Assembly: GCA_041664925.1 (NCBI GenBank) | Contig: JBAYJV010000001.1 | Location: 293,262 to 357,261, forward strand | Direction: 5' to 3' | Length of the DNA stretch: 64,000 bases | DNA from: Minisyncoccota bacterium | GTDB taxonomy: Bacteria; Patescibacteriota; Minisyncoccia; JBAYJV01 | Part shown: one piece after another, positions 26,464 to 50,703 of the stretch | Position numbering within the stretch: the stretch's first letter is position 1 | Layout: every line of letters starts with the position of its first letter | The notes under the pieces: generated by a model | Told to the model about the DNA's origin: nothing | The model's database searches: none | Seen by the model: the letters and a program-made list of their open reading frames with translations, nothing else | Translations under genes and position numbers: made by a program

Positions 26464-27573
26464 TTATTCAGTATCGCGAACTGGCATAGCGATATAAGTA
26501 TACGAATTATCGGTTGCCGATTTCATTAATAATGGCCTTTCTTTGCCGTTTGCTCGTAAAATCACCTTATTTTTATCAGTATTATTAAGTCCGTCTATGA
26601 GATAGCGATAATTAAAGACTAGTTTTACATCTTCGCCCTTAACTTCCGCTTTAATGCTTGAATTATGTTCTCCTAATTCTTGAGATTTAGAAGATATTTC
26701 AATCAGTCCTTTATTAGAAAAAGAAAGATTAATGTCATTAACTTTTGTAACAAAAAAACTAGCAATCTTAATCGCTTCAATTAGTTTGTCTTTTTCAACC
26801 ACAACCTCTGTTTGGAATTCTTGAGGAATAATTCTTTCGTAATCGGGAAAATGACCTTCTATTAATCTTGATATCAGTTGAATGTCTTCAATGTCAAACA
26901 AAATCTGATTTTCTTTAATTGTAATTTTAATATCCTTATCAATATCACTTAAAATTCTTGTAAGTTCAATAATGGTTTTTAGTGGGATAATCAAGGATAT
27001 TTCTTGGTTTTGTTGAGGAAGAGCTTTTTTCATTACCTTTTCTGCTAAACGAAAACTATCAGTCGCTACTAATTTAAGATCGCCTTGTTGGGTGATTTTA
27101 AACAAGACACCAGAAATCTCTGGTCTAGTATCGGAAAAAGAAGCTGCTTGGTGAACTTGAGACAAAGCTTTGTGAAAATCTCTTGATTTAATAATAAAGA
27201 GTGGATTCTCTTCTATTTTGGGAATAATCGGAAAATCCTCAGCGCTCATTCCTTTAATATTTGCGTTGAAATTATTGCATTTAACCATTAGGTCGTGCTT
27301 TTCCGATTCGAGACTGACTTTGTCTTGAGGAAGAGAAGAAACAAAATTACTCAAAACCCCGACTGGAACAGTAATTTTTCCATCTTCATCAACCTTTGCT
27401 GATACCCAAGTAGTTAATCCGATCTCAAGATCAGTCGCCGAAACCTTGAGTCTGCCTTTATCTGTTTCAATTAAAATATTACTCAAAATAGGCAGGTTGA
27501 TATTTTTTCCAGTAACTCGTTCAACGATACTAATGGCTTTTTTTAATTTTTCTTGAAGACAAATAATTTTCAT
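26464..27573 (-). CDS. dnaN: DNA polymerase III beta sliding clamp
   Basis: 369 aa three-domain clamp pattern, position after dnaA. Confidence 0.9.
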   Translation of the reverse strand: MKIICLQEKLKKAISIVERVTGKNINLPILSNILIETDKGRLKVSATDLEIGLTTWVSAKVDEDGKITVPVGVLSNFVSSLPQDKVSLESEKHDLMVKCNNFNANIKGMSAEDFPIIPKIEENPLFIIKSRDFHKALSQVHQAASFSDTRPEISGVLFKITQQGDLKLVATDSFRLAEKVMKKALPQQNQEISLIIPLKTIIELTRILSDIDKDIKITIKENQILFDIEDIQLISRLIEGHFPDYERIIPQEFQTEVVVEKDKLIEAIKIASFFVTKVNDINLSFSNKGLIEISSKSQELGEHNSSIKAEVKGEDVKLVFNYRYLIDGLNNTDKNKVILRANGKERPLLMKSATDNSYTYIAMPVRDTE

Positions 27574-27864: not shown

Positions 27865-29232
27865 TTAGGTGTTGTAAAGTCGCTCCTTTATTAGGTTTAA
27901 CTCCATTACGAGACCTTCATCTAATTGGCGATTGTGTTCGACTTTATCGCAAGCATGTATAACTGTCGTGTGATCGCGGCCACCGAGTTTTTTTCCGATA
28001 GAAGGATAAGATTCGTGAAGCTCTTCCCTGAGAAGATACATCGATATCTGACGCGGTTTGACTAATTCTTTTTTTCGGCCTCCCTCAATAATGTCTTCTA
28101 GAGGTATTTCATAAAACTCCGCAACTGTCTCTAATATCTTTGAAGAAGAAACACGCTTGGGTGGTCTCACAATTAAATTTTTCAAAAGCTCTTTAGCTTT
28201 TTCTAAATCAGGAATACTGTTATTAGATTTATAGTAAGCATGAATTTTATTTAAAGAACCTTCAAGTTCGCGAACGTTTTTTTGAACTTTACTGGCAATA
28301 AAATGAATAATATCGTCAGAAAGATTGTATTCTAAGGTTTCAAGTTTAGATTTAAGAATAGCAATGCGGGATTCGAAATCTGGATAAGAAATATCAACCG
28401 TCATACCTCCCTCAAAACGGGAACAGAGGCGTTCTTCTAGGGTAGGAATTGCCTTAGGCGGGCGATCAGAGCTGATAATAATTTGCTTATTGGCTTCATA
28501 TAAAGCATTAAAAGTGTGGAAAAATTCAATCTGGGTTTTCTCCTTTCCGGCCAAGAATTGAATATCGTCAATAATCAAAACATCAATCTTGCGATATTTC
28601 TTTTTAAAATCTTCCATTCTTTGGGTGCGGATAGCGTCAATTAACTCACTCGTAAAAGCTTCGGAAGAAATATATTTAACCTTAATTTGTCCGGGATACT
28701 GTTTAACTAATTCGTTGCCGATTGCCTGTAAGAGATGAGTTTTTCCTAAACCAACACCGCCATAAATAAAAAAGGGATTATATTCCCTTCCAATGTTTTC
28801 TGGTTTTACCAAAGAGAGAGCAGCAGCGTGAGCAAGTTCATTGAACGAACCGACAATAAAAGTCGAAAAATCGTATTTAGGATTTAAATTGGTTTCCTCA
28901 TCGATGATTCGATTATTAAGCAATCCCAACTGAGGTTCTTGAGCTGATTCTTCAGGGCGACGATTAATAATAACATCAACAACTCTTCTGGAAGCAACAA
29001 TATATTCCAATTTCTTTACTTCGGGAGAAACATTGCGCAAAGCGCGCAGGATTAAAGTGTTACATCTATTTTCAAGCCACTCGCGAGTGAACTGATTGGG
29101 AACTTCAAGTGTACAAATACCTTCATTTCTGGAAACAAGTCGAGCGTTTTTAATCCAAGTAACAAAATTGGCCTTAGAAACAGATAATTCTATTTCACCG
29201 ACAGCAGCTTGCCAAAGTTCTTCAATGTTCAT
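27865..29232 (-). CDS. dnaA: chromosomal replication initiator DnaA
   Basis: AAA+ Walker A GGVGLGKTHLL, Walker B LIIDDIQF, C-terminal DNA-binding domain. Confidence 0.95.
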   Translation of the reverse strand: MNIEELWQAAVGEIELSVSKANFVTWIKNARLVSRNEGICTLEVPNQFTREWLENRCNTLILRALRNVSPEVKKLEYIVASRRVVDVIINRRPEESAQEPQLGLLNNRIIDEETNLNPKYDFSTFIVGSFNELAHAAALSLVKPENIGREYNPFFIYGGVGLGKTHLLQAIGNELVKQYPGQIKVKYISSEAFTSELIDAIRTQRMEDFKKKYRKIDVLIIDDIQFLAGKEKTQIEFFHTFNALYEANKQIIISSDRPPKAIPTLEERLCSRFEGGMTVDISYPDFESRIAILKSKLETLEYNLSDDIIHFIASKVQKNVRELEGSLNKIHAYYKSNNSIPDLEKAKELLKNLIVRPPKRVSSSKILETVAEFYEIPLEDIIEGGRKKELVKPRQISMYLLREELHESYPSIGKKLGGRDHTTVIHACDKVEHNRQLDEGLVMELNLIKERLYNT

Positions 29233-29523: not shown

Positions 29524-30792
29524 ATGACAGAGCCAAATTTAGAAAAACAAGAAGCACTAGAAGATAAAAAACCACAAATCGACAAAGAATCATCTGATAA
29601 TGAGTGGACAGACATGGAAATTAAACAAAAAGAATTTATAAACAAAGTTACTGCCGCTAATCTGGACTTATCGGCAGATCAGGCGTCTGAAAAATTGGTA
29701 GCGCTTGAGAAAAAATATGACTGTCAACTTTTCAGAGTTATTTATGGAGAGGGACCACATAAAGAGCTAACAGTTAGGCGCAAAAAATTATCAATTTACA
29801 GAGAATTAAATATTATTTCCGATGAAGAAATAACAATATTAGAAAAGCTGGAAGCGGATTTTTCAAAAATAACCAAAGAAATTTGCACAGCAACAGGCGA
29901 TGATCCAGAAGAAACTCTCAAAAACATTGATTCTATTCTTGAATACCAAATGGCCAAGGATTTATCTGAGGCCAAAGAAATTTTGATTAACGGACCAATT
30001 ATTGAAGGATTTGAAGAAACCAAGGACCATCAAATGCCCGATGAATCAGTGCGCCAATTTTTAAAAGATGCTTTCGGTTTGGAGGCCTTAAAAAAAGCTA
30101 AGGTTGCTCGAGTGACCAAGGATGATCAATACATGATTTTTCTTGGTTATAATTTTCAATACGGAGACAAGGGGGCTAAGTTGGTTAAACAAGGCATTGC
30201 AGATTGGGATGGTTATGATCACACAAGATTAATTCTTAAAAGCAAAGAAGATTATCTTAAGGCAGCTATGTTTTTAGAAGAAACTGACAATCCAGATCGG
30301 CTTGAACACGCATTTAAAGTTCGAGCATCATCGGGAAACCCTGGGGGTTTTAGTATTATTCGGCTGCGAAGTTTTGGTGTTGAGAAATCTTCAGAGCTTG
30401 ATTTTTTGACAGACACAACAGAATTTGACAATGAAGACGATAGAATGCGAGCGTTTATGTTGGGGGTAATAGCGCATGAGATAGCACACGGTTATGAAAA
30501 ACAAGAGAAGGAAGGAATTTTTGACGAATACAAGAGAATTATTGAAGAGGAAAATAGTTATATTAGGTCGCAATATGTCAGCGATTATGTGCTTAAACAT
30601 AAAGAAAGATACGGAAGTGATCCGCAGGCAATTTTTCGCGAAGACTTTGCAGAAGCAGTGAGAATTTATATTACTAATCCAGAATACCTTCAGCAAAATT
30701 ATCCAAGAAGGTTCGCTTTTATTAACCAGAAATTTCCTTTTATCAAGGCAGGTGCAATTGGTGTGGCGATAAAGAATATGAGAAAGAAGTAG
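29524..30792 (+). CDS. hypothetical acidic protein with HExxH (VIAHEIAHGYE) putative zinc-metallopeptidase motif
   Basis: single HEIAH motif, no family recognised; divergent from dnaA. Confidence 0.4.
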   Translation: MTEPNLEKQEALEDKKPQIDKESSDNEWTDMEIKQKEFINKVTAANLDLSADQASEKLVALEKKYDCQLFRVIYGEGPHKELTVRRKKLSIYRELNIISDEEITILEKLEADFSKITKEICTATGDDPEETLKNIDSILEYQMAKDLSEAKEILINGPIIEGFEETKDHQMPDESVRQFLKDAFGLEALKKAKVARVTKDDQYMIFLGYNFQYGDKGAKLVKQGIADWDGYDHTRLILKSKEDYLKAAMFLEETDNPDRLEHAFKVRASSGNPGGFSIIRLRSFGVEKSSELDFLTDTTEFDNEDDRMRAFMLGVIAHEIAHGYEKQEKEGIFDEYKRIIEEENSYIRSQYVSDYVLKHKERYGSDPQAIFREDFAEAVRIYITNPEYLQQNYPRRFAFINQKFPFIKAGAIGVAIKNMRKK

Positions 30793-30878: not shown

Positions 30879-31706
30879 TTAGTTTAATTTGAAAAGCGTT
30901 TTTGCATTTTGGGTGGTGACTTGAGCAACTTCTTGAAAACCAATGCCTTTTATTTCCGCAATCCTTTCCGCGACATATTTTACATACAGTGGCAGATTTT
31001 TTTTGCCTCTGAATGGTACAGGCGCAACATAAGGACAATCAGTTTCCACCATCAATTTTTCTAGCGGGGTTTCTTTTATAATTTCATCGTATGCCTTAGT
31101 AAAAGTGATGACGCCTGTAAAAGAAATTAAAAATCCTAGCTCAATCATTTCTCTGGCATCTTCTTTCGTTCCAGAAAAGAAATGAGCAGTGCCGCGAAGC
31201 GGTATTTCGAATTTCGAATTTCGAATTTCGAATTTAAGGATCTTTACAAGATCCTTCCATGCTTCTCGGCAGTGGATAATAATCGGAAGATTGAGTTTTT
31301 GAGCAAACAAAACCTGTTGTTTAAAAGACTTCTTTTGAGCTTCTTTGTCTTCTTCTGTTTTTGCGTAAGTATAGTCTAGTCCGATTTCGCCAATCGCAAC
31401 GACTTTTTTGCTTTTTGCGAGTATCTCATATTTTTTGGCATCAAATTCTTCGGGACGAGATTTAAAACTTGGTTCGACTTCATTGACATCGACTTGGTTG
31501 GGAATAGCGTGGATGGGGTGAAGGCCGATGGCGGCCCAAACGCCAGTTTTGTATCTTTCGGCAATTTCAACGGCGCGCTTGCTGGTTTCATATTGCGAGC
31601 CGACATTGATTAATTGAATATCATTTTTAAAACATTGATCAATAACCTGGTTATGATCATCTTTAAAGGCGTTGAAATTGAGATGGGCGTGGGTGTCGAT
31701 TAACAT
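30879..31706 (-). CDS. tatD: TatD-family metal-dependent DNase/hydrolase (ATG start at 31706; track used upstream TTG at 31721) with in-frame heptamer-repeat insertion
   Basis: MLIDTHAHLNF start, TIM-barrel His/Asp/Glu metal ligands (IGEIGLDY, IIHCREA); 4.5x ATTTCGA array 31204..31236. Confidence 0.85.
   Translation of the reverse strand: MLIDTHAHLNFNAFKDDHNQVIDQCFKNDIQLINVGSQYETSKRAVEIAERYKTGVWAAIGLHPIHAIPNQVDVNEVEPSFKSRPEEFDAKKYEILAKSKKVVAIGEIGLDYTYAKTEEDKEAQKKSFKQQVLFAQKLNLPIIIHCREAWKDLVKILKFEIRNSKFEIPLRGTAHFFSGTKEDAREMIELGFLISFTGVITFTKAYDEIIKETPLEKLMVETDCPYVAPVPFRGKKNLPLYVKYVAERIAEIKGIGFQEVAQVTTQNAKTLFKLN
31204..31236. repeat. 4.5-unit tandem heptanucleotide repeat (ATTTCGA) inside tatD coding sequence
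   Basis: directly visible; encodes KFEIRNSKFEIP. Confidence 0.7.
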
Positions 31707-31953
31707 AAACTTAAAGCGCAAAGCTTAAAGCGAAAAACAACAACTTAAAACTTAAAATTGAGAATAGTAGCAACAAACATCTTTTAGTCATTCTGAGTGC
31801 AACGAAGAATCCTGGGATCTTTCGGTCGCCTTGGGCGACCTCAAGATGACATTACTTTTATTTTAAAGGTTTTTAGGGAAAAAGAAAGCCGTGAGCTTGT
31901 ATTTTTTCAATAAAAATATAAAATGAAAATATGCAAAAAGGAGGAATAAAAAT

Positions 31954-32325
31954 ATGAACCTAGAACAAGAATCAATCTCGCCAGAACAGTCACAAGAAAA
32001 AAAAGAACCGATTTTTGATCAAGAAAAATTTAGGTCACTATGTGCAATATGGAAAGAAGAAGAGACAAAAATGCACAGTTGTATGAAGGCCTCTTTCATA
32101 AAAGGAGCAAAAGAACATGAAGGGAAAGCAAAAGAAGCATATGACCAATTATTGGAAATAGCAGAAGCAGCCCTAAAGGAAAGCAATGGAGATAGAAAAA
32201 TTTTTAACGAAATAACAAGAGCAATTTTAAAAATAGAATCCTATGGGGGGGGATCAGAAACCATTGATCTTACAGATTTTCTTGAAGATTTGGTTTTGAA
32301 GATTGTTTCAGAAAGGAGCGAATAA
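31954..32325 (+). CDS. hypothetical acidic protein (123 aa)
   Basis: strong RBS AAAGGAGGAATAAAAAT-ATG; followed by terminator; immediately upstream of radical SAM gene. Confidence 0.45.
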   Translation: MNLEQESISPEQSQEKKEPIFDQEKFRSLCAIWKEEETKMHSCMKASFIKGAKEHEGKAKEAYDQLLEIAEAALKESNGDRKIFNEITRAILKIESYGGGSETIDLTDFLEDLVLKIVSERSE

Positions 32326-32345
32326 TTAGCTTTATTTTGAGAAAC

Positions 32346-32376
32346 AAAACGGCGATAGATGTCGCCGTTTTTTAAT
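32346..32376 (+). terminator. rho-independent terminator (ACGGCGA-tagatg-TCGCCGT + T6)
   Basis: perfect 7-bp GC-rich stem + T-run. Confidence 0.6.
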
Positions 32377-32456
32377 TTATTATGAATAAATTATTTATAG
32401 CACTCCATTTATATTTAATAGAGGGTATAATAAGATAAGAATAATTATTTTTAGCG

Positions 32457-33476
32457 GTGTTGTCGCAAATGAATAAATTAATCAATAAAATTCTTAAAGA
32501 ATTAAGCTATCAGACAGGGCGATATATGGTTTCGCCTGAATATGTGAGCTTAATGATTACAGGAAAGTGCAATTTTCGTTGCCAAACCTGTTCTATTTGG
32601 CAAAAAAAGGAAAAAAAGGAATTAAACGAAGCGGACTGGCTTAGAATAGCCCATGAATTAAGCGACGCCTTGAAGCCAGACACTTTTATAGAAATAAATG
32701 GTGGAGAGCCATTAATGAGACCTTCTTTAACTATTTCTCTTGTAAAAGAACTAAAGAGGTATTTTAAAAAAGTAACCCTTAATTCGAATGGATCACTGAT
32801 TAATGAAGAAATCCTTGATCAGCTTAAAAAGGCAGGGCTGGGTACTATAAAAATGTCATTTTATAGCCTAGACGAGAAAATCCATAATCAATTGCGTGGA
32901 AATTCCCTGGCTTATGATCAGGCGATGAAGACCATAAGCCTCATAACAAAGAAGCAAATTGAACTTGAAATTGGCTTGCTCATTACTTCCAAAAACATAA
33001 AAAATGCGGTAGAATTGGTTATGTACCTTCAAACACTTCCCAAAACATCAATTATCCTTCAGCCGCTTGACGAGAAGATTGGTTTGCCCCAATCTTTGAA
33101 TAGATCCGACAATAAATTAATTACCAGTCTTTGGCCAAAAAGAGACGACATTGACACTTTCTTTTCTTGGATAGAAAAAAACAGGCAAAAAATAAAAAAC
33201 TCGTCTGCCAATTTGGAAGCAATTAGGCAATATTATTTAGATCCAAAAAGTACCTTAAGTTTTCGTTGCTTTGCTGGTCAGAGAAGTCTAATTATTCAAC
33301 CCGACGGCGACGTCTTATTGTGTTTTAAAGGAAAAAGCATTGGAAATATAAAAAATCAGAGCGTGAAAAAAATCCTTAAGAACGCCATAAGCGAACGAAA
33401 GAAAATAAAAAATTGCCAGAAATATTGCCGTATTATTGGTTGTAATTTTTCCCGTGGCCTGAAAGAAATGTTATAG
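32457..33476 (+). CDS. radical SAM enzyme with C-terminal SPASM/twitch-like Cys-rich domain
   Basis: CNFRCQTC (CxxxCxxC) near N-terminus; C-terminal C-x17-(Gx4C) then CQKYCRIIGC cluster. Confidence 0.75.
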   Translation: MLSQMNKLINKILKELSYQTGRYMVSPEYVSLMITGKCNFRCQTCSIWQKKEKKELNEADWLRIAHELSDALKPDTFIEINGGEPLMRPSLTISLVKELKRYFKKVTLNSNGSLINEEILDQLKKAGLGTIKMSFYSLDEKIHNQLRGNSLAYDQAMKTISLITKKQIELEIGLLITSKNIKNAVELVMYLQTLPKTSIILQPLDEKIGLPQSLNRSDNKLITSLWPKRDDIDTFFSWIEKNRQKIKNSSANLEAIRQYYLDPKSTLSFRCFAGQRSLIIQPDGDVLLCFKGKSIGNIKNQSVKKILKNAISERKKIKNCQKYCRIIGCNFSRGLKEML

Positions 33477-33513
33477 GAGAACAAAGGGAAGACTTTAATT
33501 ATGAGAAATTTTT

Positions 33514-34341
33514 ATGAATCCGACTACATCAATTGTTATTAGAACAAAAAACGAAGAAAAATATCTAGAAAAAGTTCTTCAAATCCTGAAGCAACAAACC
33601 TATCAGGATTTTGAGATTGTTATTGTTGACGATCATTCAACTGATCGAACTTTAGAAATTGCGCAAAATTATGGATGCAAGATTGTGTCTGTTCCCAAGG
33701 GGAAATTCACTTATCCTTATGCTTGTAACGTCGGTGTTAAAAATAGTGTTGGTCGCTATATTGTCTTTTTGAGCGGACACTCTATACCTATCAATAATGA
33801 TTGGCTTAGAAATGGATTATCTAATTTTCGGAATGAGGACGTCTCTGGCGTGTATAGCGTAGTCTCGGCTTTACCCAATGCAAATCTACTAGAAAGATTT
33901 TTGTATGGCACGAATGTTATTTTTAATAAAAAAAGGACCATCATTGATAGGCCTGAAAAAGTTGGCATGGGTGTTTTGGGTTTTACAAATGCGATTATAG
34001 ATAAGCATCTTTGGGAAAGATATAATATTGACGAAAAATTTGCCAGGGGTGGTGAAGATACAGCCTGGGCTAGGTATTGGGTAGAAAGAGGGTTTGTCGT
34101 GATTCATGACAAAAGATTTAGAGTTTATCACTCTCACAACATGGGTCCAATCGGTCAAGTAAAGCAATTTGCCAATTGGGTGACATTGAGCAAGCCAAGG
34201 AAATTTAAAGCACAAGACAGGAATTTTGAGGTTGACTTAGAAGTTCAGAAAAGTTGCTCAACTCCGTCTTGTTATTTTCGTAAGGCGAAAGTCAGTATTT
34301 TTTCTTTTGCTAAAAAGATTTTTGAGGAAGAGAATAGTTAA
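33514..34341 (+). CDS. family-2 glycosyltransferase
   Basis: IVIRTKNEEKYL...FEIVIVDDHSTDRT GT-A fold DxD region. Confidence 0.7.
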   Translation: MNPTTSIVIRTKNEEKYLEKVLQILKQQTYQDFEIVIVDDHSTDRTLEIAQNYGCKIVSVPKGKFTYPYACNVGVKNSVGRYIVFLSGHSIPINNDWLRNGLSNFRNEDVSGVYSVVSALPNANLLERFLYGTNVIFNKKRTIIDRPEKVGMGVLGFTNAIIDKHLWERYNIDEKFARGGEDTAWARYWVERGFVVIHDKRFRVYHSHNMGPIGQVKQFANWVTLSKPRKFKAQDRNFEVDLEVQKSCSTPSCYFRKAKVSIFSFAKKIFEEENS

Positions 34342-34408
34342 TAGAGTAATATCATATATTAACACTTGACAATATTATCGCGAGGCGTTATCATAGATTA
34401 ATATAAGC

Positions 34409-34690
34409 ATGATTGAGAGTTTTCATTGCAAAGAAACACAGAAGATTTTTAAAAGAGAAACCTCTTCTAAGCTTCCTCATTTAATTCAACGATCAGCCGT
34501 AAGAAAACTTTTAATAATAGATGCGGCTGTGTCCTTAAAAGATCTTCGTATTCCCCCAGCTAATCATTTAGAGAAATTAAGGGGGAAAAGAAAAGGACAG
34601 CATAGTATTCGCATCAATGGTCAATGGCGCATATGTTTTGAATGGAAACAAGGCAATGCTTATAGGGTAGAGATTTGCGATTATCATTAA
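34409..34690 (+). CDS. higB: HigB-type toxin (plasmid maintenance system killer protein, RelE superfamily)
   Basis: MIESFHCKETQKIF...RKGQHSIRINGQWRICFEW...ICDYH matches HigB (COG3549) pattern. Confidence 0.8.
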   Translation: MIESFHCKETQKIFKRETSSKLPHLIQRSAVRKLLIIDAAVSLKDLRIPPANHLEKLRGKRKGQHSIRINGQWRICFEWKQGNAYRVEICDYH

Positions 34691-34699
34691 TAAAAAAAC

Positions 34700-35005
34700 A
34701 TGACCACAAAAAAAATGAAACCAATTTATCCGGGAGAAGTCCTTAAAGAAGAATTTTTAAAACCCCTTGAAATCTCGGAATATCGCCTAGCGAAGGATAT
34801 TGCCGTATCTCCCAGACGCATCAATGAAATTACACATGGAACAAGGGCGATTACTGTTGATACGGCGCTTCGTTTTGCCAAATATTTTGGCAATTCACCT
34901 CAGTTTTGGCTAAATTTACAATCGCATTACGAATTGGAGATACAAGAAGAAAGCATGAAAGATATCTTGAAATATAAGGTAAAAACCCTTAATTATGCGA
35001 TGTAA
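34700..35005 (+). CDS. higA: HigA antitoxin (XRE-family HTH)
   Basis: MKPIYPGEVLKEEFLKPL...SPQFWLNLQ matches HigA (COG3093). Confidence 0.8.
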   Translation: MTTKKMKPIYPGEVLKEEFLKPLEISEYRLAKDIAVSPRRINEITHGTRAITVDTALRFAKYFGNSPQFWLNLQSHYELEIQEESMKDILKYKVKTLNYAM

Positions 35006-35031
35006 AAAGTACTAATAGAATTAAAAAACAA

Positions 35032-35066
35032 AAAAACAGCTCTTGATAAGCTGTCTTTTTTTTTAT
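35032..35066. terminator. bidirectional terminator (ACAGCT-cttgata-AGCTGT + T9), part of duplicated ~65-bp repeat
   Basis: hairpin with A-run/T-run. Confidence 0.6.
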
Positions 35067-35072
35067 GTTCAT

Positions 35073-35819
35073 TTACTTAATCAATTCTTGGGAAAAGGGA
35101 TTAGTGCGTCTAGTTTTATATAATACCTTAAGATAATTTTTAAGAATTATTGGCAATGTTTTTGCAAATTTTATCGGGTGACGATATTTTCTTAAACTTG
35201 TATCAATATTCATCAATGGGTCGTGTAAAATTGGAGCTTTGTTTTTATAGTGATATTGTCTTTTAACGGTGATTGAAATATATAAATCTTCCAAGCGCTT
35301 GTAAGTTAAATCGAAACCACCGATATCTAAAAAAGCTTTTTTCCGAATAGCCATGTTGTTGCCGAAAAGAAAAGTCAGTCCAAGCTTAAAATGAGCTTTT
35401 TGAAAATTGTTCGATATAAAAGTAGGGAATCGTTTTTTTTCATAGAAATTTTTTCCGCCACATGCTATTACTTTTTTATTGCGCATATTCTTTTCAATTC
35501 TTTCTAACCACTCGGCTGATACGATGGAATCAGCATCAGTAGTCGCTATTATTGGATAGTGCGCATACAAAAATCCTTTCTGGCGAGCAAACACAATACC
35601 CTGACACTTTTCTTCCAGTAATTTAACATCCAAGAAACCATTTTTAATAAATTGTTTTACTACGGCAACGGATCTGTCGGTCGAGTTATTGTTAACTACA
35701 ATAATCTCAAATGGCCCCGGAAAAATTTGTTTTTCAAAGGCTTTTAGACATTTAAGTATAGTGTTTTCCTCGTTATATAACGGTATTACAACAGAAATCA
35801 TAATATTAAATTTTAACAC
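35073..35819 (-). CDS. family-2 glycosyltransferase
   Basis: MISVVIPLYNEENTI...IIVVNNNSTDRS GT-A N-terminal signature. Confidence 0.7.
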   Translation of the reverse strand: MLKFNIMISVVIPLYNEENTILKCLKAFEKQIFPGPFEIIVVNNNSTDRSVAVVKQFIKNGFLDVKLLEEKCQGIVFARQKGFLYAHYPIIATTDADSIVSAEWLERIEKNMRNKKVIACGGKNFYEKKRFPTFISNNFQKAHFKLGLTFLFGNNMAIRKKAFLDIGGFDLTYKRLEDLYISITVKRQYHYKNKAPILHDPLMNIDTSLRKYRHPIKFAKTLPIILKNYLKVLYKTRRTNPFSQELIK

Positions 35820-35837
35820 ACTTTATTTTCTACCACT

Positions 35838-36530
35838 ATGTTTGTCTTTATTGATGTTCATGTTATTATAGTAATCAACATGAAAAGCATTTTTGACAGG
35901 AATTATTTCACAAAAGAATATTATTACAAAAGAAAAAGATCTAATTATTCGAATTATAGTCGTTTTGATAACAATGCGTTCTGGAGACCGGTCATAAAAG
36001 TTATAAAGAAATATAAAATGAGTGGAAATTTTTTAGATCTAGGATGTGCTTTTGGATTTCTTTCTAAAAGGGTTATTCCATATTTTACGAATGTGTATGG
36101 TCTGGACATATCAGAATACGCAATTAGTCGTGCGCAAAATCAAACAGATTCAGTTAGATTTGTCAGTGCAGATCTTAATAAAAAAACACTTCCTTACAAT
36201 GATAATTATTTTAACTGCGTAGCCGCTCTTGATATTATAGAGCATACCGAATCAACAGAAAACACTCTTAAAATAATAACAAAAAAATTAGCTCCTAATG
36301 GATATTTAATTATAGGTTTTCCCGTCAGAGATACGGTTATGGGGAAAATTGTAGGAATTTTTGATAAAGACCCAACACACATTAGTATTGTTAACAGAAA
36401 AACACTTAAAGAACAGATATTAAAAGCAGGGCTAAGCGTAGTAGAACAACACTATTTCACAAAAGTTTTAGGTGTTCATGTGCGGGGCTTATCAGGAAAT
36501 ATTTTTATAGTCGCTCGGAAACAAAAATAA
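35838..36530 (+). CDS. class I SAM-dependent methyltransferase (start possibly at internal Met 35880)
   Basis: motif I FLDLGCAFGFL, motif post-II ALDIIEH. Confidence 0.7.
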   Translation: MFVFIDVHVIIVINMKSIFDRNYFTKEYYYKRKRSNYSNYSRFDNNAFWRPVIKVIKKYKMSGNFLDLGCAFGFLSKRVIPYFTNVYGLDISEYAISRAQNQTDSVRFVSADLNKKTLPYNDNYFNCVAALDIIEHTESTENTLKIITKKLAPNGYLIIGFPVRDTVMGKIVGIFDKDPTHISIVNRKTLKEQILKAGLSVVEQHYFTKVLGVHVRGLSGNIFIVARKQK

Positions 36531-36543
36531 AAGGCAAAACAAA

Positions 36544-36576
36544 AGAACAGCTTCTTGTTAGCTGTTTTTTTTTGTG
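36544..36576. terminator. bidirectional terminator (ACAGCT-tcttgtt-AGCTGT + T9), paralogous copy of 35032..35066
   Basis: hairpin + T-run. Confidence 0.6.
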
Positions 36577-36585
36577 CCTATTTAC

Positions 36586-38133
36586 TTAATCAAATCTTGG
36601 AAAAAGGATGTCGAGTGGCCTTAGGGTCGTGCCTGGCTTAATGTTTGTCCAGCTATCTTTATATTTCGGATTTTTGGCTAGTAATTTCTTTATATCTAAA
36701 ACAGCTGCAATTTTTAGCGCAGTTTCGGGCATGAAAACATAAATTTGCCAAGCGATCTGATGAATTGCATCCAAAAGACCATAAAGCGCCCAATTCAGCT
36801 CCTCAGTTTTTCTTCGCCTCGCTAGTGCCCAGGGCTCTGTTTTGTCAATGTATTTATTTGCTTCGGCAATAAATTGCCAGATTGAAAAGAGCGCTTCATT
36901 AAATTTGAAATCTGCAACATTTTTATCGATGTCTTGCCAGGCTTTTTTCCAGTTATGAATTTTATCATCAACTCTTAGAGGATGGGTGTCAGGATCTTTA
37001 CTGATCTGCGGTACTTTGTTGTCACAATATTTATCAATCATTTTTACTACTCGAGAAACTAAATTCCCCAGTCCTGAAGCTAGATCAGCATTGTAGGTTT
37101 CATTAAATCTTTCATAAGTGAAATCGCCATCACCGGTTGTCGGTATTTCTTTTAAGAGATAATATCTTAATGCGTCTGTTCCGTATTTTCCAATGATTTC
37201 AAACGGACTGACAACATTACCTAGGGTTTTTGACATCTTTTGTCCATCAGATGAGATAAAGCCATGAACAAGAAGAGTGTTGGGGAGCGACAATCCAGCC
37301 GAAAGAAGGATGCCCGGCCAAATAAGGGCATGAAAACGCAAAATGTCCTTTCCGATTATTTGGATGTCAGCGGGCCAATATTTATTAAAATTGGCCTCAT
37401 CGGCGCTTCCAAAGCCCAAAGACGAGATATAATTAGTCAAAGCATCAGCCCAAACATAAATTGTTTGGGTATTGTCGCTTGGAACGGGAATTCCCCAATC
37501 AAGAGACGAGGCGGGACGAGAAAAACTTACATCTTGGACACCATCTTTTATTAGGGAAAATAGTTCATTAGTTCTAATTTCTGGAATGATTTTTAGTTTT
37601 CCAGATTCAATTAACTTCTTAATTTCATCGCCATACTTTGAAAGTTTGAAAAAATAATTTTTTTCTTTAATTTCTTCTGGTTTGGCATTATGAAGATGGC
37701 ATTTTCCGTCTTTATCTAAATCCTTTTTAGTAATAAAGGCCTCACAGCCAGCGCAATAGAGACCGTCGTAAGTTTTTTTATAAATATCACCCTTTTCTTC
37801 TAATGTTTTCCAAATTTTTTCAACACCTGGCCAGTGGCGTTTTTTGTCAGTTGTTCGTATAAAGTCATCATTTGAAATGTTCAATGTTTTTGTCAGCTCC
37901 AAAACCTTGGCAGAATTTTCGTTTACCAATTCGCTTGTGGTTATGCCAAGTTTTTCAGCAGTTTTTTTATTTTTAACACCATTTTCGTCAGTCCCTGTTA
38001 AAAAGCGAACATCTTCTTTCTGAAGTCGATGGTAGCGCGCTAAAACATCTGCCTGTGCTAGTTCTAAAGCAAAACCAATATGTGGACAGGCATTTGTATA
38101 GACGATAGATGTTGTTATATAGTATCTTTTCAT
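36586..38133 (-). CDS. metG: methionyl-tRNA synthetase (minimal form without C-terminal tRNA-binding extension)
   Basis: class I HIGH (CPHIGF), KMSKTLGN, CP-domain zinc knuckle CAGCE...C..H, anticodon-binding helical domain. Confidence 0.8.
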   Translation of the reverse strand: MKRYYITTSIVYTNACPHIGFALELAQADVLARYHRLQKEDVRFLTGTDENGVKNKKTAEKLGITTSELVNENSAKVLELTKTLNISNDDFIRTTDKKRHWPGVEKIWKTLEEKGDIYKKTYDGLYCAGCEAFITKKDLDKDGKCHLHNAKPEEIKEKNYFFKLSKYGDEIKKLIESGKLKIIPEIRTNELFSLIKDGVQDVSFSRPASSLDWGIPVPSDNTQTIYVWADALTNYISSLGFGSADEANFNKYWPADIQIIGKDILRFHALIWPGILLSAGLSLPNTLLVHGFISSDGQKMSKTLGNVVSPFEIIGKYGTDALRYYLLKEIPTTGDGDFTYERFNETYNADLASGLGNLVSRVVKMIDKYCDNKVPQISKDPDTHPLRVDDKIHNWKKAWQDIDKNVADFKFNEALFSIWQFIAEANKYIDKTEPWALARRRKTEELNWALYGLLDAIHQIAWQIYVFMPETALKIAAVLDIKKLLAKNPKYKDSWTNIKPGTTLRPLDILFPRFD

Positions 38134-38798
38134 CTGTTTATCAAAACAACGAATTCTCCTTTATTTTTATCCTGATCTAATTTTTCTAACACCTGCTTGG
38201 GTGTTCCTCGATAGATTGTTTCAAATTTTTTAGTCAACTCTCTTCCCAAAACAATTTCTTCTATTTCCAAATCAATAATCTCTGACAAGAACTTCTTGAT
38301 TCGATAAACTGATTCATAAACCACTACGGGAAATCTCGAATCCTTGATAATGCCTAGGAAAGTTTTGCGTCCTTTCTTTTTTGGCATAAAACCTAAAAAC
38401 AAAAAGCGATTTACATTAAAATCGGCGACAGACAATAACGCAGTTAAAGCAGATGATCCTGGTATGGGAATAATCTTTGCGCTTTCACCAAATATTTCTA
38501 TAACTTTTTGAACTAGCTTACCCCCTGGATCAGCGATGTTTGGGGTGCCCGCCTCAGAAACTAGCGCAATTTTTTTACCAGATTTCAATAATTCAATAAT
38601 ACCATCATAAACACTACCTTCTGAATGTTCATGAAACGATTGAAGGCGGGTTTTGATTTCATATCTATCAAAAAGCCTTTTTGTCACGAGCGGTTTTTCT
38701 GACAATACAAGATCTGTCTCTTTTAGTATTCGCACTGCTCTTACGGTTATATCTTCTAAATTACCAATTGGCGTGGCGACCAAATAAAGTTCTCCCAT
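38130..38798 (-). CDS. rsmI: 16S rRNA (cytidine1402-2'-O)-methyltransferase RsmI
   Basis: LYLVATPIGNLEDIT start, tetrapyrrole-methylase fold motifs. Confidence 0.85.
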   Translation of the reverse strand: MGELYLVATPIGNLEDITVRAVRILKETDLVLSEKPLVTKRLFDRYEIKTRLQSFHEHSEGSVYDGIIELLKSGKKIALVSEAGTPNIADPGGKLVQKVIEIFGESAKIIPIPGSSALTALLSVADFNVNRFLFLGFMPKKKGRKTFLGIIKDSRFPVVVYESVYRIKKFLSEIIDLEIEEIVLGRELTKKFETIYRGTPKQVLEKLDQDKNKGEFVVLINR

Positions 38799-41704: not shown

Positions 41705-41904
41705 AAAATAAGGGATATAATGAATAAATGAGACACAAGAAATAAGCAGGATGGATAAATTTTTTTCTTTTATCCTCTTAACCCCTTTATATCCTGTATT
41801 TCTTATTGTATAACAAATAAAAAATAAGGCAACAAAACAATTTTAAAAACAAAAGTCAACTTTTCAGGTGAAAAATTGACTTAGAATAATAAAAACCTAA
41901 AAAC

Positions 41905-43467
41905 CTAATCCAAGTCACACAACATATAGGCTATTGCCTTTGCTGCCAAGTCCATCGCTTCTTCGTCAAAGTTTGCTTCTGGAGTATGTAATTTGTAACC
42001 GCTGTCACCCTTTTTTCTTGCTCCCAAAGTTAATCTTGTTGATGGAATTTCTTTGCTAAAATAATTAGCATCATCTGGAACAAGCACAGGTTCAGTCTGA
42101 TAGGTGATGTTTTTATCGAATTTATCAATGGATGACTTCAGGACATTAGTTAGTCGGGGATCTCCTCTGAATGATGATATGCCCATTTTGTGGTGAAATT
42201 CGTATTGTAGTCCCGGATAATCTTTTGCAACTTCAGAAACTTTTCTTATTAGTGCTTCTTTAATGATTTTTCGCAAAGTTTTTCCTTTAACATCCGGTTC
42301 AAGAGACCACACCTTGCCAAAATTAACCGGGTTGGGCTTTGTATCTGACTTGGTCGGTTTTTCTCTTTTCCAGAAAGGAATTTTTTCTGCCGACACTGTC
42401 TCGCCCGTCCAATCATCACCAAAAAGATGTCCACTAATTTTTAATCCTTGAACATTTTGGGGGCGGTGTTGTTCGTCTTGTTCTTCTAAACGGAGAAGTT
42501 CTAAGATTCTCCCAACCTGTTCATTTATATAAGCATTTTTATCTTTAATTGACCAATCCTGTCCTTCTTTTGACGATATAGTTTCGCTAATTTCACCATA
42601 AATTTTATCAACTGCAATCAATATTTTTTTGATCTCTTGGTCAACTTTTTCAAAAAACATTTTTTGGACAGCAGGATCAGTATCTGGATCGGTAATTTCA
42701 ACAGCCCACCTATCTGAAGCGGCTAACACAGGCCTTCCTTTTTCAAATTCTCCTTCGGCTAAAACAGTTCCTGTTTCAGAAAAATCATTATAATGCCAAC
42801 TAACGAGACCATCTGCGCTAAGCATGTTTCTTATTTCTTCAGGGAGTTCTTTATTTCTGTTAGCTTCGTGAATAATTTTCGCCGCGCCTGTTTCTACGGC
42901 AGTTGATGATTCCTCGTTACCTCTAGCAACGCAGATAACATCGAAACCAAGGCCGACTTCATCATTAATTTTTGTTAAATACCTTGTTATACCTTCTCCG
43001 GTTGCTGAATTTAAGTCATGACCACAACCATGAAATGCGTCAGTGTTTTCAGATGAATATGGTAGACCAGTTTTTTCTTGCATCGGAAGAGCGTCCATGT
43101 CCCATGTTAGAACATATTTTTTTCTAGGTTGTCCTTCTGTTGATTTTTTGCCGCGCAAAATACCAACAACGCCAGCAATGCCTTTCTTTTTTTCATCTTC
43201 GCTGATTTTATAATCTGTTTCAAGAATCCAAGCTTCTAAGCCCAAGTTTTTTAGATTTTCAAGAGTTGTTTCGGCTGTCCTTTTAATCTCAAAACCGGTT
43301 TCTGGATATTGATGAATATCTCGTCTTCTTTCAACCATTTTCTGATAAGTTTCGGGCGCTTCGCTTTCTATTAAACTAGCAATTTTTTCTAACTCTGCCT
43401 GTCTTTCCGGAGTTAATTCTTTTTCTGTTTTTTCAGAAGGACTAAATTGTTCATTTTTGATACCCAT
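41905..43467 (-). CDS. M20-family amidohydrolase/peptidase-like protein
   Basis: HGCGHD motif (M20D HACGHD-like), 520 aa. Confidence 0.45.
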   Translation of the reverse strand: MGIKNEQFSPSEKTEKELTPERQAELEKIASLIESEAPETYQKMVERRRDIHQYPETGFEIKRTAETTLENLKNLGLEAWILETDYKISEDEKKKGIAGVVGILRGKKSTEGQPRKKYVLTWDMDALPMQEKTGLPYSSENTDAFHGCGHDLNSATGEGITRYLTKINDEVGLGFDVICVARGNEESSTAVETGAAKIIHEANRNKELPEEIRNMLSADGLVSWHYNDFSETGTVLAEGEFEKGRPVLAASDRWAVEITDPDTDPAVQKMFFEKVDQEIKKILIAVDKIYGEISETISSKEGQDWSIKDKNAYINEQVGRILELLRLEEQDEQHRPQNVQGLKISGHLFGDDWTGETVSAEKIPFWKREKPTKSDTKPNPVNFGKVWSLEPDVKGKTLRKIIKEALIRKVSEVAKDYPGLQYEFHHKMGISSFRGDPRLTNVLKSSIDKFDKNITYQTEPVLVPDDANYFSKEIPSTRLTLGARKKGDSGYKLHTPEANFDEEAMDLAAKAIAYMLCDLD

Positions 43468-43475
43468 AAATTTAA

Positions 43476-44420
43476 TTAATCAACTTTTACATTTAAAAGG
43501 TAAGTATAGAGGCCCATTGATGCGTAGACCCATTCTCTTAAAAAGTCTTTTACAATAACCCGAGAATCTTTATCGACTTCTTTTTCAACGGTTAGGCGAC
43601 CATCTGTCAGAATTCTTGGAGTTACATATTGAATAAAAGCATCTGGTTTCACGAGTTCTAGATCTTTTTCCGTAAAGATTTTAACCAATTTGTTGTATTT
43701 TTCCACTAATCCTGGATCTTCTCCTGGTTGGGGTAATCCTTCCATGATGATTAAAGAGTCTACTTTGGATATAAAATCTTCAAGCTTTCCTCTGATTAAT
43801 TGGCCGCCGGTTTTTTTAACAAAATCTTTAATATGAGGAGGCGTTTCGAACTCGTCAATCACAGGATCTTCATACATCGTTACGCCCATAATGCTTAACA
43901 TTTTAATCATTGCCTTAATGGGGCGCGAAGACTTAGTCATGCCGTAAAATCCTACAGTTGATTTTTTGAAATCAAAATTTCTACGAGAAAGAGAATAAAT
44001 CATAGTTAAAGAACCGTTTGTGTGTTCATCGCTACCGCACATAGCATTCACTAAAGGAATAGGGAAATCAGCAGAAAAGTCGTCTAAATTCAAGCTTTTG
44101 TGCCTAACAGCCATAATGTCACAAGCAGGAGCATACGATCTCATAAAATCCTCTATATCTTCTTCTCCTGATGCAACATAGGTTCCAGCGGTTCCACTAA
44201 TTCCAACAAAGCCGCCGCCCAATCTGATTATCGCTGACTGTAAAATTGTTGATGTGCGTGTGCTTTCTTGAAAAAATAATGTAGCGAGAACTTTTCCCGG
44301 GCAGAGATGGGTAAAATCTTTACCTTTTTCAATACCTTCTTGAAAAATCTTAGCGCGCCTACAGACCTCTAAATAATCTTCTTTAGTAAAATCTTCCGCT
44401 TTGATTAAATGTTTGGGCAT
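43476..44420 (-). CDS. divergent aspartate/ornithine carbamoyltransferase-fold protein
   Basis: FFQESTRTS (STRTR-like), DIMAVRH, PLVNAMCGSDEHTNG (HPxQ region altered); 314 aa. Confidence 0.4.
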   Translation of the reverse strand: MPKHLIKAEDFTKEDYLEVCRRAKIFQEGIEKGKDFTHLCPGKVLATLFFQESTRTSTILQSAIIRLGGGFVGISGTAGTYVASGEEDIEDFMRSYAPACDIMAVRHKSLNLDDFSADFPIPLVNAMCGSDEHTNGSLTMIYSLSRRNFDFKKSTVGFYGMTKSSRPIKAMIKMLSIMGVTMYEDPVIDEFETPPHIKDFVKKTGGQLIRGKLEDFISKVDSLIIMEGLPQPGEDPGLVEKYNKLVKIFTEKDLELVKPDAFIQYVTPRILTDGRLTVEKEVDKDSRVIVKDFLREWVYASMGLYTYLLNVKVD

Positions 44421-44462
44421 ATTTTTTATTAAAAATTAAATTTCTAAACTTAAAATTAAGTC

Positions 44463-45401
44463 TTATAAAGTTGTAATTGGTCGAGCTTGGAGAATATAAA
44501 GCGTATTATTTTCAAGCGCCCATTCAATATCTTGCGGCTTTCCGTAATGATTTTCAATATTGATAGCGATTTTCGCCAATTCCTTGATTTTTTCATTTGA
44601 TAATTTCTGTTTATCTTTTTTATCGTCAGGTACTGCTCTTTCTTCTGTGTCAAAATCAGGTTTTCTGACAATCATTTTTGTTTGTTCAGATGTGCTGACA
44701 TCAATAAAATTGAGAGTGCTTTTTTCAATAACATAACTATCGGGCGTAATACTTCCCTGAACTAAAGCTTCTCCCAATCCCCAACAAGCCTCCGCAATCA
44801 TTTGATCTTTATCTCGAGTGACTGGATGGACCGTAAAACAAACGCCGGCAACTTCAGAATCAATCATTTTTTGGACTACTACTGCCACAGAAACCAATTT
44901 TCCTTTATAACCACGCTCGAATCTGTAACATAGTGCTCTTGGAGAAAACAGCGAAGCCCAACATTTTTTTACGCTTTCTAAAACATTATTTTTGTTTATA
45001 AAAAGATAGCTTTCAAGTTGGCCTGCCCAAGCGTCAATAGCGGAATCTTCGGCAGTAGCTGACGACCTGATGGCAACATATTCTGTGTCAAGATTATCAA
45101 AATTAATTAAAATTTCTTCTTTAATATTCTCAGGAATGCTTCCATTAGAAACGATATTATGAATTTCTTCTGAACAGGATTCTATGGCTGAAGAATCCTG
45201 AGTATCAACCTTGTCCAATAATTTATCAATTTTTGTTTTAATATCGTTATCTTTTAAAAATTTATCAAAAGCAGAAGCAAGGACAACAAAACCCGGAGGA
45301 ACAGGGATGCCCGCCTGAGTCATTTCGCCCAGAGACGCTCCTTTTCCACCGGCAATTCCTACATCATTTTTTGAAATTTCTCTAAAATTCTTGATATACA
45401 T
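44463..45401 (-). CDS. stand-alone PPDK_N / PEP-synthase N-terminal ATP-grasp nucleotide-binding domain protein
   Basis: VGIAGGKGASLGEM, GIPVPPGFVV, VAIRSSATAEDS, GVCFTVHP, DIEWA...LQARPITTL; no swivel or TIM-barrel domain. Confidence 0.8.
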   Translation of the reverse strand: MYIKNFREISKNDVGIAGGKGASLGEMTQAGIPVPPGFVVLASAFDKFLKDNDIKTKIDKLLDKVDTQDSSAIESCSEEIHNIVSNGSIPENIKEEILINFDNLDTEYVAIRSSATAEDSAIDAWAGQLESYLFINKNNVLESVKKCWASLFSPRALCYRFERGYKGKLVSVAVVVQKMIDSEVAGVCFTVHPVTRDKDQMIAEACWGLGEALVQGSITPDSYVIEKSTLNFIDVSTSEQTKMIVRKPDFDTEERAVPDDKKDKQKLSNEKIKELAKIAINIENHYGKPQDIEWALENNTLYILQARPITTL

Positions 45402-45422
45402 ATTATTTTAATTATTTTTTAA

Positions 45423-46298
45423 CTATACACTCCATCTTTTCTTTCTTTCTTCTGTCTCTTTCTCGAGTTCTTCAATTATTTTTTTAAGATCCTCTTCGTC
45501 AAATTCTCTTTCCTGATCTCTATAGCTAATTTTAACCCTTCCATTTTCAATATCAATTTTATGTCCCTCTAGATAATTTCTGGCACCTCCTATTTCATCA
45601 AGACCGGCAGCATTAATCGGCATGCCCAAAAGTTTCATTACCAAAAAATCAGTATTTGCATTATGGGATATGCCAAACAATTTTATTTCGTTATTAGGAA
45701 AATGACCCTGGTTGATTTCCATCATGCTCATGAGCCACCTTATCTGTTTAATGGTAACTTGTTCAGGGGAACCGAAGAAAGTAGTATCAAATTCGGCCAC
45801 TGGTGCCTCGGGATTTTCTTTTAGCATTTCCTGCCTAAGTTGGGCTAATTCTTCAGGAGACCAGGCGGCCCATGTTTTTACGGCAAAACCTTCGTTTCCA
45901 AATATCTGCCGACTTTTTTCAAATAATTTTGCTCCTCTTGGATCACCGGTCTTTGGTATTCCTATAAGCGAAGAATAAGATAATCCTTTAATTAAAACTT
46001 TTTCTTTCGTGCTTGAATCAATTTTTTGTATTTCTCCAATATCATGAACATCTAAAATTCTATATCCTTGACCGGCCTCATTGAACAAGCTAATTAATGT
46101 TTCTTCAAAAATATCCCTTGTTTTCTGGGTTCTTTCTATATTTGATGGCATAAAAGCAATGACTGTGCCCTCAGGATAGGTTTTTATTTCTTCAAAAAGT
46201 TCTTTGGCACGGTCTCTAATTTTTTCTCTACCATCTTCTGAAATATGGCCGGTTTCATCTTTTTCCCCATGGCGCAAAACCTCAAATGATTGTTTCAT
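45423..46298 (-). CDS. histidine phosphatase superfamily (PGAM/SixA branch) protein
   Basis: VLRHGEK (RHG), SNIERTQKT (second Arg), ISHNANTDF (second His). Confidence 0.6.
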   Translation of the reverse strand: MKQSFEVLRHGEKDETGHISEDGREKIRDRAKELFEEIKTYPEGTVIAFMPSNIERTQKTRDIFEETLISLFNEAGQGYRILDVHDIGEIQKIDSSTKEKVLIKGLSYSSLIGIPKTGDPRGAKLFEKSRQIFGNEGFAVKTWAAWSPEELAQLRQEMLKENPEAPVAEFDTTFFGSPEQVTIKQIRWLMSMMEINQGHFPNNEIKLFGISHNANTDFLVMKLLGMPINAAGLDEIGGARNYLEGHKIDIENGRVKISYRDQEREFDEEDLKKIIEELEKETEERKKRWSV

Positions 46299-46321
46299 GA
46301 TATTTGTAAAATTAATTAAAA

Positions 46322-50682: not shown

Positions 50683-50703
50683 AATCTATAAAAAAAACAT
50701 ATT

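Follow-up and report, generated by a model that had tools for sequence, protein, structure and literature searches.

A two-gene cassette between direct copies of the metG tail and terminator in a Minisyncoccota genome

Several described kinds of insertion leave a gene intact and duplicate its end. The element e14 of E. coli is a prophage remnant of about 15 kb that encodes a tyrosine integrase of its own and has a defined att core; both e14 and phage 21 insert in the 3' end of the housekeeping gene icd, which stays intact, and leave a pseudo-end at the far side. Islands at tRNA and tmRNA genes are likewise bordered by direct repeats of the target 3' end and restore their target, but they are large, encode integrases and use RNA genes. 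In the laboratory, Campbell-type integration of a suicide plasmid gives a merodiploid in which direct repeats of the homologous segment border the insert, and host homologous recombination suffices for it. Diverged direct repeats of the duplicated gene end flank the e14 insert in icd (PMC6379469). Neisseria minimal mobile elements are small recombinase-free cassettes with strain-variable contents that occupy a fixed site between housekeeping genes and move by natural transformation and homologous recombination (PMC3787668, PMC3082526). Here we describe a small cassette behind metG in a 64,000-nucleotide (nt) stretch of a Minisyncoccota bacterium genome (GCA_041664925.1; JBAYJV010000001.1, 293,262 to 357,261; hereafter the window). 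It consists of a family 2 glycosyltransferase (GT2) gene and a methyltransferase (MT) gene.

The locus belongs to a known kind of insertion, one whose borders are repeats of a duplicated gene end. As with e14 and phage 21, the target is the 3' end of a housekeeping gene, the gene is intact and a pseudo-end stands at the far side. In contrast to e14, the insert is only 1.4 kb long and the searches found no recombinase; the terminator is part of the repeat, and a cassette gene reuses the displaced tail as its C-terminus and stop. What is less usual is this reuse, by which the cassette takes its stop and terminator from a displaced gene tail, with a junction that recurs in two clades. Among the hallmarks of integrative elements, the locus has direct repeats of the target-gene end and an intact target, and no recombinase gene on or next to the element emerged from the 48 window ORFs scanned. 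Its product geometry is that of a suicide-plasmid merodiploid; the corresponding circle would be a 1.4-kb cassette with about 74-90 bp of homology. The interval between metG and tatD resembles the sites of Neisseria minimal mobile elements in its variable contents. To our knowledge, however, those elements enter by a double crossover in the flanking genes and create no flanking direct repeats, whereas here the metG-tail duplication is specific to the GT2-MT cassette.

The cassette measures 1.44 kb and lies directly behind metG, between direct copies of the metG tail and terminator. The gene metG (36586-38133, minus strand) encodes a 515-aa methionyl-tRNA synthetase (MetRS; PF09334, 2e-100), and its 3' tail and terminator are the duplicated target. 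Next to it is the MT gene (35880-36530, plus strand; P0241), which encodes a class I S-adenosylmethionine (SAM)-dependent methyltransferase matching Methyltransf_11/23/31. NCBI calls it at 216 aa, and the open reading frame (ORF) is extendable to 35838. Its stop falls 5 nt before the repeat copy that belongs to metG (copy B, 36536-36607, minus strand). The divergent GT2 gene (35073-35801, minus strand; PF00535, 1.5e-27) encodes 242 aa as in public records, its ORF being extendable to a GTG at 35819, and its product is 100% identical to P0001; NCBI lists the proteins under the name 'Candidatus Paceibacterota bacterium'. The 3' end of this gene enters the other repeat copy (copy A, 35025-35098, minus strand).

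An earlier reading of the window from its letters alone, the sequence-only reading, had proposed that a repeat of about 85% identity, made of a gene 3' end and a terminator, brackets this divergent pair. Gapped local alignment bears this out: copies A and B flank the pair in direct orientation and agree at 63 of 75 columns (84%, three small gaps), with a score of 85 against 22.2 +/- 2.5 (maximum 35) for 200 shuffles, about 25 standard deviations above them. Read on the minus strand, the repeat comprises 22 coding nt, a spacer, and a hairpin with an ACAGCT/AGCTGT stem flanked by A and T runs. It covers the last seven metG codons plus the stop and is therefore not limited to the hairpin, extending through 22 nt of coding sequence at the 3' end of both genes. 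Its longest perfect block, of 14 nt (ATTTACTTAATCAA), spans the metG stop in both copies. We dropped an extension of the window repeat to about 12 metG codons, as the extra 13-27 nt scored no better than shuffles.

The 64-kb window contains exactly two occurrences each of a 29-nt tail motif and of the hairpin motif (about 0 and 0.12 expected by chance, respectively), and a genome-wide dispersed repeat of the REP or MITE type was therefore rejected. A/T runs and short hairpins are common in a genome of 35% GC, and the similarity might accordingly lack historical meaning, having arisen by chance, by convergence of AT-rich terminators or through an assembly chimera. We regard this as effectively refuted by the alignment score, by a similarity that spans the coding nucleotides and the spacer, by the restriction of the motifs to two places and by the empty site in a relative described below. 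In addition, two Logan assemblies from other sequencing runs, SRR6484324 (L081) and SRR18595301 (L103), are 100% identical to the window across both repeats, which excludes an assembly artefact.

Each repeat lies between convergent genes, and its hairpin stands between an A-run and a T-run, the layout of a two-way intrinsic, rho-independent terminator. Copy B joins the working metG 3' end (LFPRFD and stop, 36586-36607) to a hairpin at 36546-36566, a terminator common to metG and the convergent MT gene, and folds at -15.9 and -20.4 kcal/mol on its two strands (z -3.3 and -5.0). Copy A contains the displaced metG tail and a hairpin at 35030-35060 (-14.1 kcal/mol, z -4.2) between the GT2 gene and the convergent higA, to both of which this terminator is common. 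All four folds, two copies on two strands, were stabler than shuffles (z -2.2 to -5.0), and a terminator scan called copy A on both strands and copy B on the minus strand. Because the hairpin stems are identical in A, B and the closest relative and the loops differ, the comparison suggests that both copies are maintained as working two-way terminators, with B serving metG and MT, and A serving GT2 and higA.

The closest relative found, L090 (JGI 3300048658; MetRS 87% identical, DNA 81-86% identical), has the site without the cassette. There metG is followed by a single copy of the tail and terminator (L090:1571-1646, with the same ACAGCT hairpin) and then directly by a 275-aa GT2 gene and radical-SAM genes, with no GT2-MT pair. 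By blastn, L090 1-1638 aligns with window positions 38176-36535 and L090 1666-3557 with 34360-32468, so that the extra DNA in the window is 34361-36534, holding HigBA, copy A, GT2 and MT. On the cassette side the insertion begins exactly at the outer edge of copy B, 36535. The one segment L090 1571-1646 also aligns with 35097-35019, which is copy A; aligning to both copies, it identifies the duplicated segment as a stretch of the unoccupied target. The sequence-only reading of an inserted cassette is thereby upheld, and the empty site that it looked for exists, in the form 275-aa GT2-terminator-metG and not in the predicted form higA-terminator-metG.

The two genes were also said to end with nearly the same nucleotides, with a C-terminus borrowed in one direction or the other between GT2 and metG. 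The shared nucleotides are real, but they are read in different frames. In copy B, metG reads ctt ttt cca aga ttt gat taa (LFPRFD and stop); in copy A, GT2 reads ccc ttt tcc caa gaa ttg att aag taa in the +1 frame (PFSQELIK and stop), and copy A thus supplies its last eight codons and its stop. Read in the metG frame, copy A still gives LFPRID and stop, the exact MetRS ending of L090 and of L002, and an ending of the form ..PLFPR[IVL].. is common to most MetRS orthologues with listed C-termini. GT2 orthologues cease to resemble the cassette protein just before the metG-tail point: the cassette GT2 departs from P0002 after ..KVLYK (C-termini ..KVLYKTRRTNPFSQELIK in the window, ..KVLCKSKPHLATPSKG in P0002 and ..RILFLYDFRFKKGET in the more distant L084). 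Since copy A retains LFPRID and stop in the metG frame, these comparisons settle the direction of borrowing as metG to GT2: the GT2 C-terminus and stop are made from the displaced metG tail, and the reverse direction falls away.

As a separate observation on these protein ends, the working MetRS of the window has an atypical C-terminus, ..RPLDILFPRFD and stop (36586-36625). The typical ending, seen in its relatives, is ..PLFPRI[D/E/K], and the LFPRID and stop preserved in displaced copy A is closer to it.

We also compared the copies with the empty site. The A-B alignment score of 85 exceeds the scores of the two copies against the L090 copy (67 and 71); as A and B are closer to each other than either is to that copy, the duplication would, barring gene conversion, be younger than the split from L090. 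Together with the low GC content of the cassette (31.3%, against 35.0 +/- 2.1% for same-sized stretches of the window), this mutual closeness points to a gain in the window's lineage after that split. The three-way comparison holds too few informative sites to place a crossover point. The cassette is absent from six further related lineages, L095, L091 (with L092 and L093), L001, L002, L096-L101 and L102, in all of which the upstream order exonuclease, M16 peptidase, AI-2E permease, rsmI, metG is kept. No other island behind metG has duplicated the metG tail in L090, L091, L095, L096, L102, L001 or L002.

The closest homologue of the cassette GT2, P0002 (83% identical), is encoded on two 1.4-kb contigs, L082 and L083 (JGI 3300014656, ENA ERZ27247128), with the same divergent MT-GT2 pair. 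L082 aligns with window positions 36361-35111 at 77.8% DNA identity, and the MT proteins are 74% identical. This homology ends at L082:1251, equivalent to window 35111, where L082 continues with agccccatctcgccactccttccaagggttgagaagtga. In the metG frame, the stretch past 1251 reads SPISPLLPRVEK and stop, followed by a spacer and a terminator with a CGGGAA/TTCCCG stem. L082 therefore has a metG tail and terminator of its own here. They match the metG tail of L002 at 55 of 71 positions (score 53; shuffles 15.8 +/- 2.6) and also the tail of L091 (SPIESLFPRVEK and stop), but not the copies in the window; the extra L082 tail codons (SPI..) resemble L091 by eye only. The L082 tail copy thus resembles the metG tails of L082's own clade. 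It departs from the 14-nt perfect block of the window at about 4 of 14 positions and has a terminator of a different sequence type.

Counted from where cassette homology stops, the CCAAG of the Pro-Arg codons is reached after 19 nt in the window and after 21 nt in L082; by this spacing the GT2::metG-tail junctions of the two lineages coincide to within about 2 nt. In the window, the strong repeat ends at 35098 and cassette homology at 35111. The 13-nt junction segment that separates them (35099-35111, minus strand) has no significant similarity to metG and may be a decayed further stretch of the metG tail. A search for the metG side of the L082 cassette did not find it, and the MetRS genes with the most similar tails (P0123, P0124, P0127 and P0129) have empty or differently filled sites. 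The distant GT2 of L084 (68% identical) has its own C-terminus and no metG tail; it comes from one sample with a distant MT (L094, 60% identical), and there is no sign that the two are adjacent.

A junction shared by two clades would follow from one ancient event, and this is the attraction of an old, vertically inherited cassette that stood behind metG in the ancestor of both clades, was lost precisely and repeatedly through its repeats and had its copies A and B kept alike by gene conversion. Precise deletion between direct repeats would recreate the single-copy site of L090, and the local look of copy A in both lineages is what concerted evolution predicts. We consider this history unlikely. 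It needs at least five to seven independent losses, one of them in the closest relative, and two gains are more parsimonious. Cassette DNA is 77.8% identical between the clades and core genes only 67-74%, although accessory genes usually diverge faster. The low GC of the cassette speaks against long residence as well, and gene conversion over about 74 bp that are now 16% diverged would be inefficient.

The defined position of the junction could instead mark the end of an element, with the repeats as attL and attR of site-specific integration, an integrase encoded elsewhere or since lost targeting the metG 3' end, and the element carrying a replacement gene end. The layout, a gene 3' end duplicated directly beside an intact gene, is that of e14 in icd (PMC6379469), and the perfect 14-nt block across the metG stop could be the core. 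A possible core, however, differs between the lineages (TTGATTAAGTAAAT in the window, TTGAGAAGTGAAT in L082), and the terminator parts are of two sequence types. Pfam scans gave no match to integrase, transposase or other recombinase families among the 48 larger ORFs of the window, all ORFs near the cassette included. A trans-acting enzyme encoded outside the window is conceivable, but a 1.4-kb cassette is too small to hold an integrase, and a GT2 gene without its own stop suggests an accidental rather than an evolved boundary. We therefore rate site-specific integration as rather unlikely. The further suggestion that the cassette is poised for excision is poorly supported, since the copies are 16% diverged and share no perfect block longer than 14 nt.

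Other carriers and targets were considered and set aside. A transposon or insertion sequence was rejected, the cassette ends having no inverted repeats, the ORFs scanned containing no transposase and the duplication being about 74 bp long. The window contains no tRNA gene, which rules one out as the integration target. A scan of viral contigs with the GT2 alignment did not find the cassette, and a plasmid search matched only the HigBA part; phage or plasmid carriage was rejected on these searches. A cut-and-fill insertion, in which some trans-acting enzyme nicks the target about 75-90 bp apart, inserts the cassette and leaves gap repair to duplicate the target, would explain why an identical cassette end is paired with a locally derived tail copy in two clades. 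It seems highly improbable, given the absence of terminal inverted repeats and of a transposase and with only two occupied sites known, one of them incomplete. We also know of no mobile element that makes duplications of about 75-90 bp at a defined site.

We favour, with moderate confidence, a Campbell-type single-crossover integration of a circular (or equivalent tandem) intermediate by host homologous recombination, after the split from L090. A single early illegitimate join would first have fused the GT2 3' end to a metG tail, which would explain why GT2 lacks its own stop and reads the metG tail out of frame. The product would be a circularisable unit of tail, terminator, MT and truncated GT2. 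This unit would then recombine once with the chromosomal metG tail and terminator, integrating behind metG, and the single crossover would leave one copy of the homologous segment on each side of the insert, as with a suicide plasmid. At least one transfer of the unit between clades would complete the history. One report describes natural competence, and the integration of DNA by homologous recombination, in cultured Patescibacteria (PMC10633639). RecO, LexA and ExoVII are encoded in the window. The sequence-only reading had likewise invoked recombination at a duplicated target; the duplicated target and its empty site are in place and, with no recombinase accompanying the cassette, the mechanism is one that we infer.

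Several points weigh against such a single-crossover gain. The homology is short, about 74-90 bp, and marginal for RecA-type recombination, and recA lies outside the window, so that RecA was not seen. In the simple model the GT2-proximal copy A should be donor-derived, yet in both lineages it looks like the metG tail of the local clade, and the model then needs same-clade donors, a crossover placed at the far end of the homology, or gene conversion after the event. The L082 contig ends inside the MT gene with the B side off the contig, which leaves its adjacency to metG unproven.

The same facts could describe something more regular, namely a recombinase-free, hitch-hiking family of cassettes that bears a fossil metG tail and, once taken up as DNA, uses the conserved MetRS C-terminal motif (..PLFPRI.. 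and stop) and the terminator as portable homology for insertion behind metG in different clades of Patescibacteria, or an enzyme not yet known that makes target duplications of about 75-90 bp. We think this improbable. If it were true, the same junction paired with clade-specific tails would reflect a repeatable, targeted mechanism and not a single accident.

Overall, the locus records a gene gain by recombination clearly, though as a fairly ordinary case. It is also a well-resolved example of the gain of probable surface-glycan genes in the ultra-small, uncultured Patescibacteria, with occupied and empty sites, both junctions and a second carrier to compare. A small cassette without a recombinase has settled behind an essential gene without damaging it and has put the displaced tail and terminator to use for a gene of its own. 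Should the same junction recur in many lineages, it would point to homology-guided movement of cassettes, with a possible use in engineering these organisms.

The genes around the cassette bear on its likely function. On the plus strand before copy A lie a radical-SAM/SPASM gene (32457-33476), the 275-aa GT2 gene (33514-34341), higB (34409-34690; PF05015) and higA (34700-35005; HTH_3), and upstream of metG an rsmI-like methylase gene (38130-38798, minus strand). With another GT2, a radical-SAM/SPASM enzyme and a Wzy_C protein near the cassette, and a GT1 at this locus in L090, the cassette is probably a strain-variable module that would modify a surface glycan.

The segment with the HigB/HigA toxin-antitoxin module (34361-35018, about 658 bp) stands between copy A and the 275-aa GT2 gene and is absent from L090. 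It is a separate insertion next to copy A, outside the repeat-bounded cassette, and its DNA is 66-68% identical to modules on Synechocystis and Moraxella plasmids.

The whole interval from tatD to metG (30879-36585) adjoins dnaA (27865-29232) and dnaN (26464-27573), and each relative examined has different contents there: nothing in L091, a single small ORF in L095, glycosyl-transfer genes in L090, and methyltransferase, nitroreductase, toxin-antitoxin or NUDIX/HIT genes in L096, L102 and L001. This interval beside the replication origin is thus marked as a gene-content hotspot of the clade.

Four smaller features were recorded in the window and its relatives. In L095 (MetRS 78% identical), metG is called at only 448 aa (L095:418-1764) with an opposite-strand gene directly upstream, and it may be N-terminally truncated or split, or reflect a contig problem. 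L091 has an extra hairpin of about 60 nt (ggagttctctg..cagagagctcc; L091:3108-3200) between the metG stop and the terminator, which L002 and L082 lack. A 422-aa ORF between dnaA and tatD (29524-30792, plus strand) has no Pfam match, and a zeta-toxin gene occupies the matching place in L090. Lastly, a block of about 9 kb (41709-50693) has no counterpart in L001 or L002, where its flanking genes are adjacent; it includes a 1.3-kb stretch (47828-49140) free of ORFs of at least 70 aa and has genes for an M20 peptidase, an OTCase-like protein, a PPDK_N protein and two paralogous PEP-utilizers.

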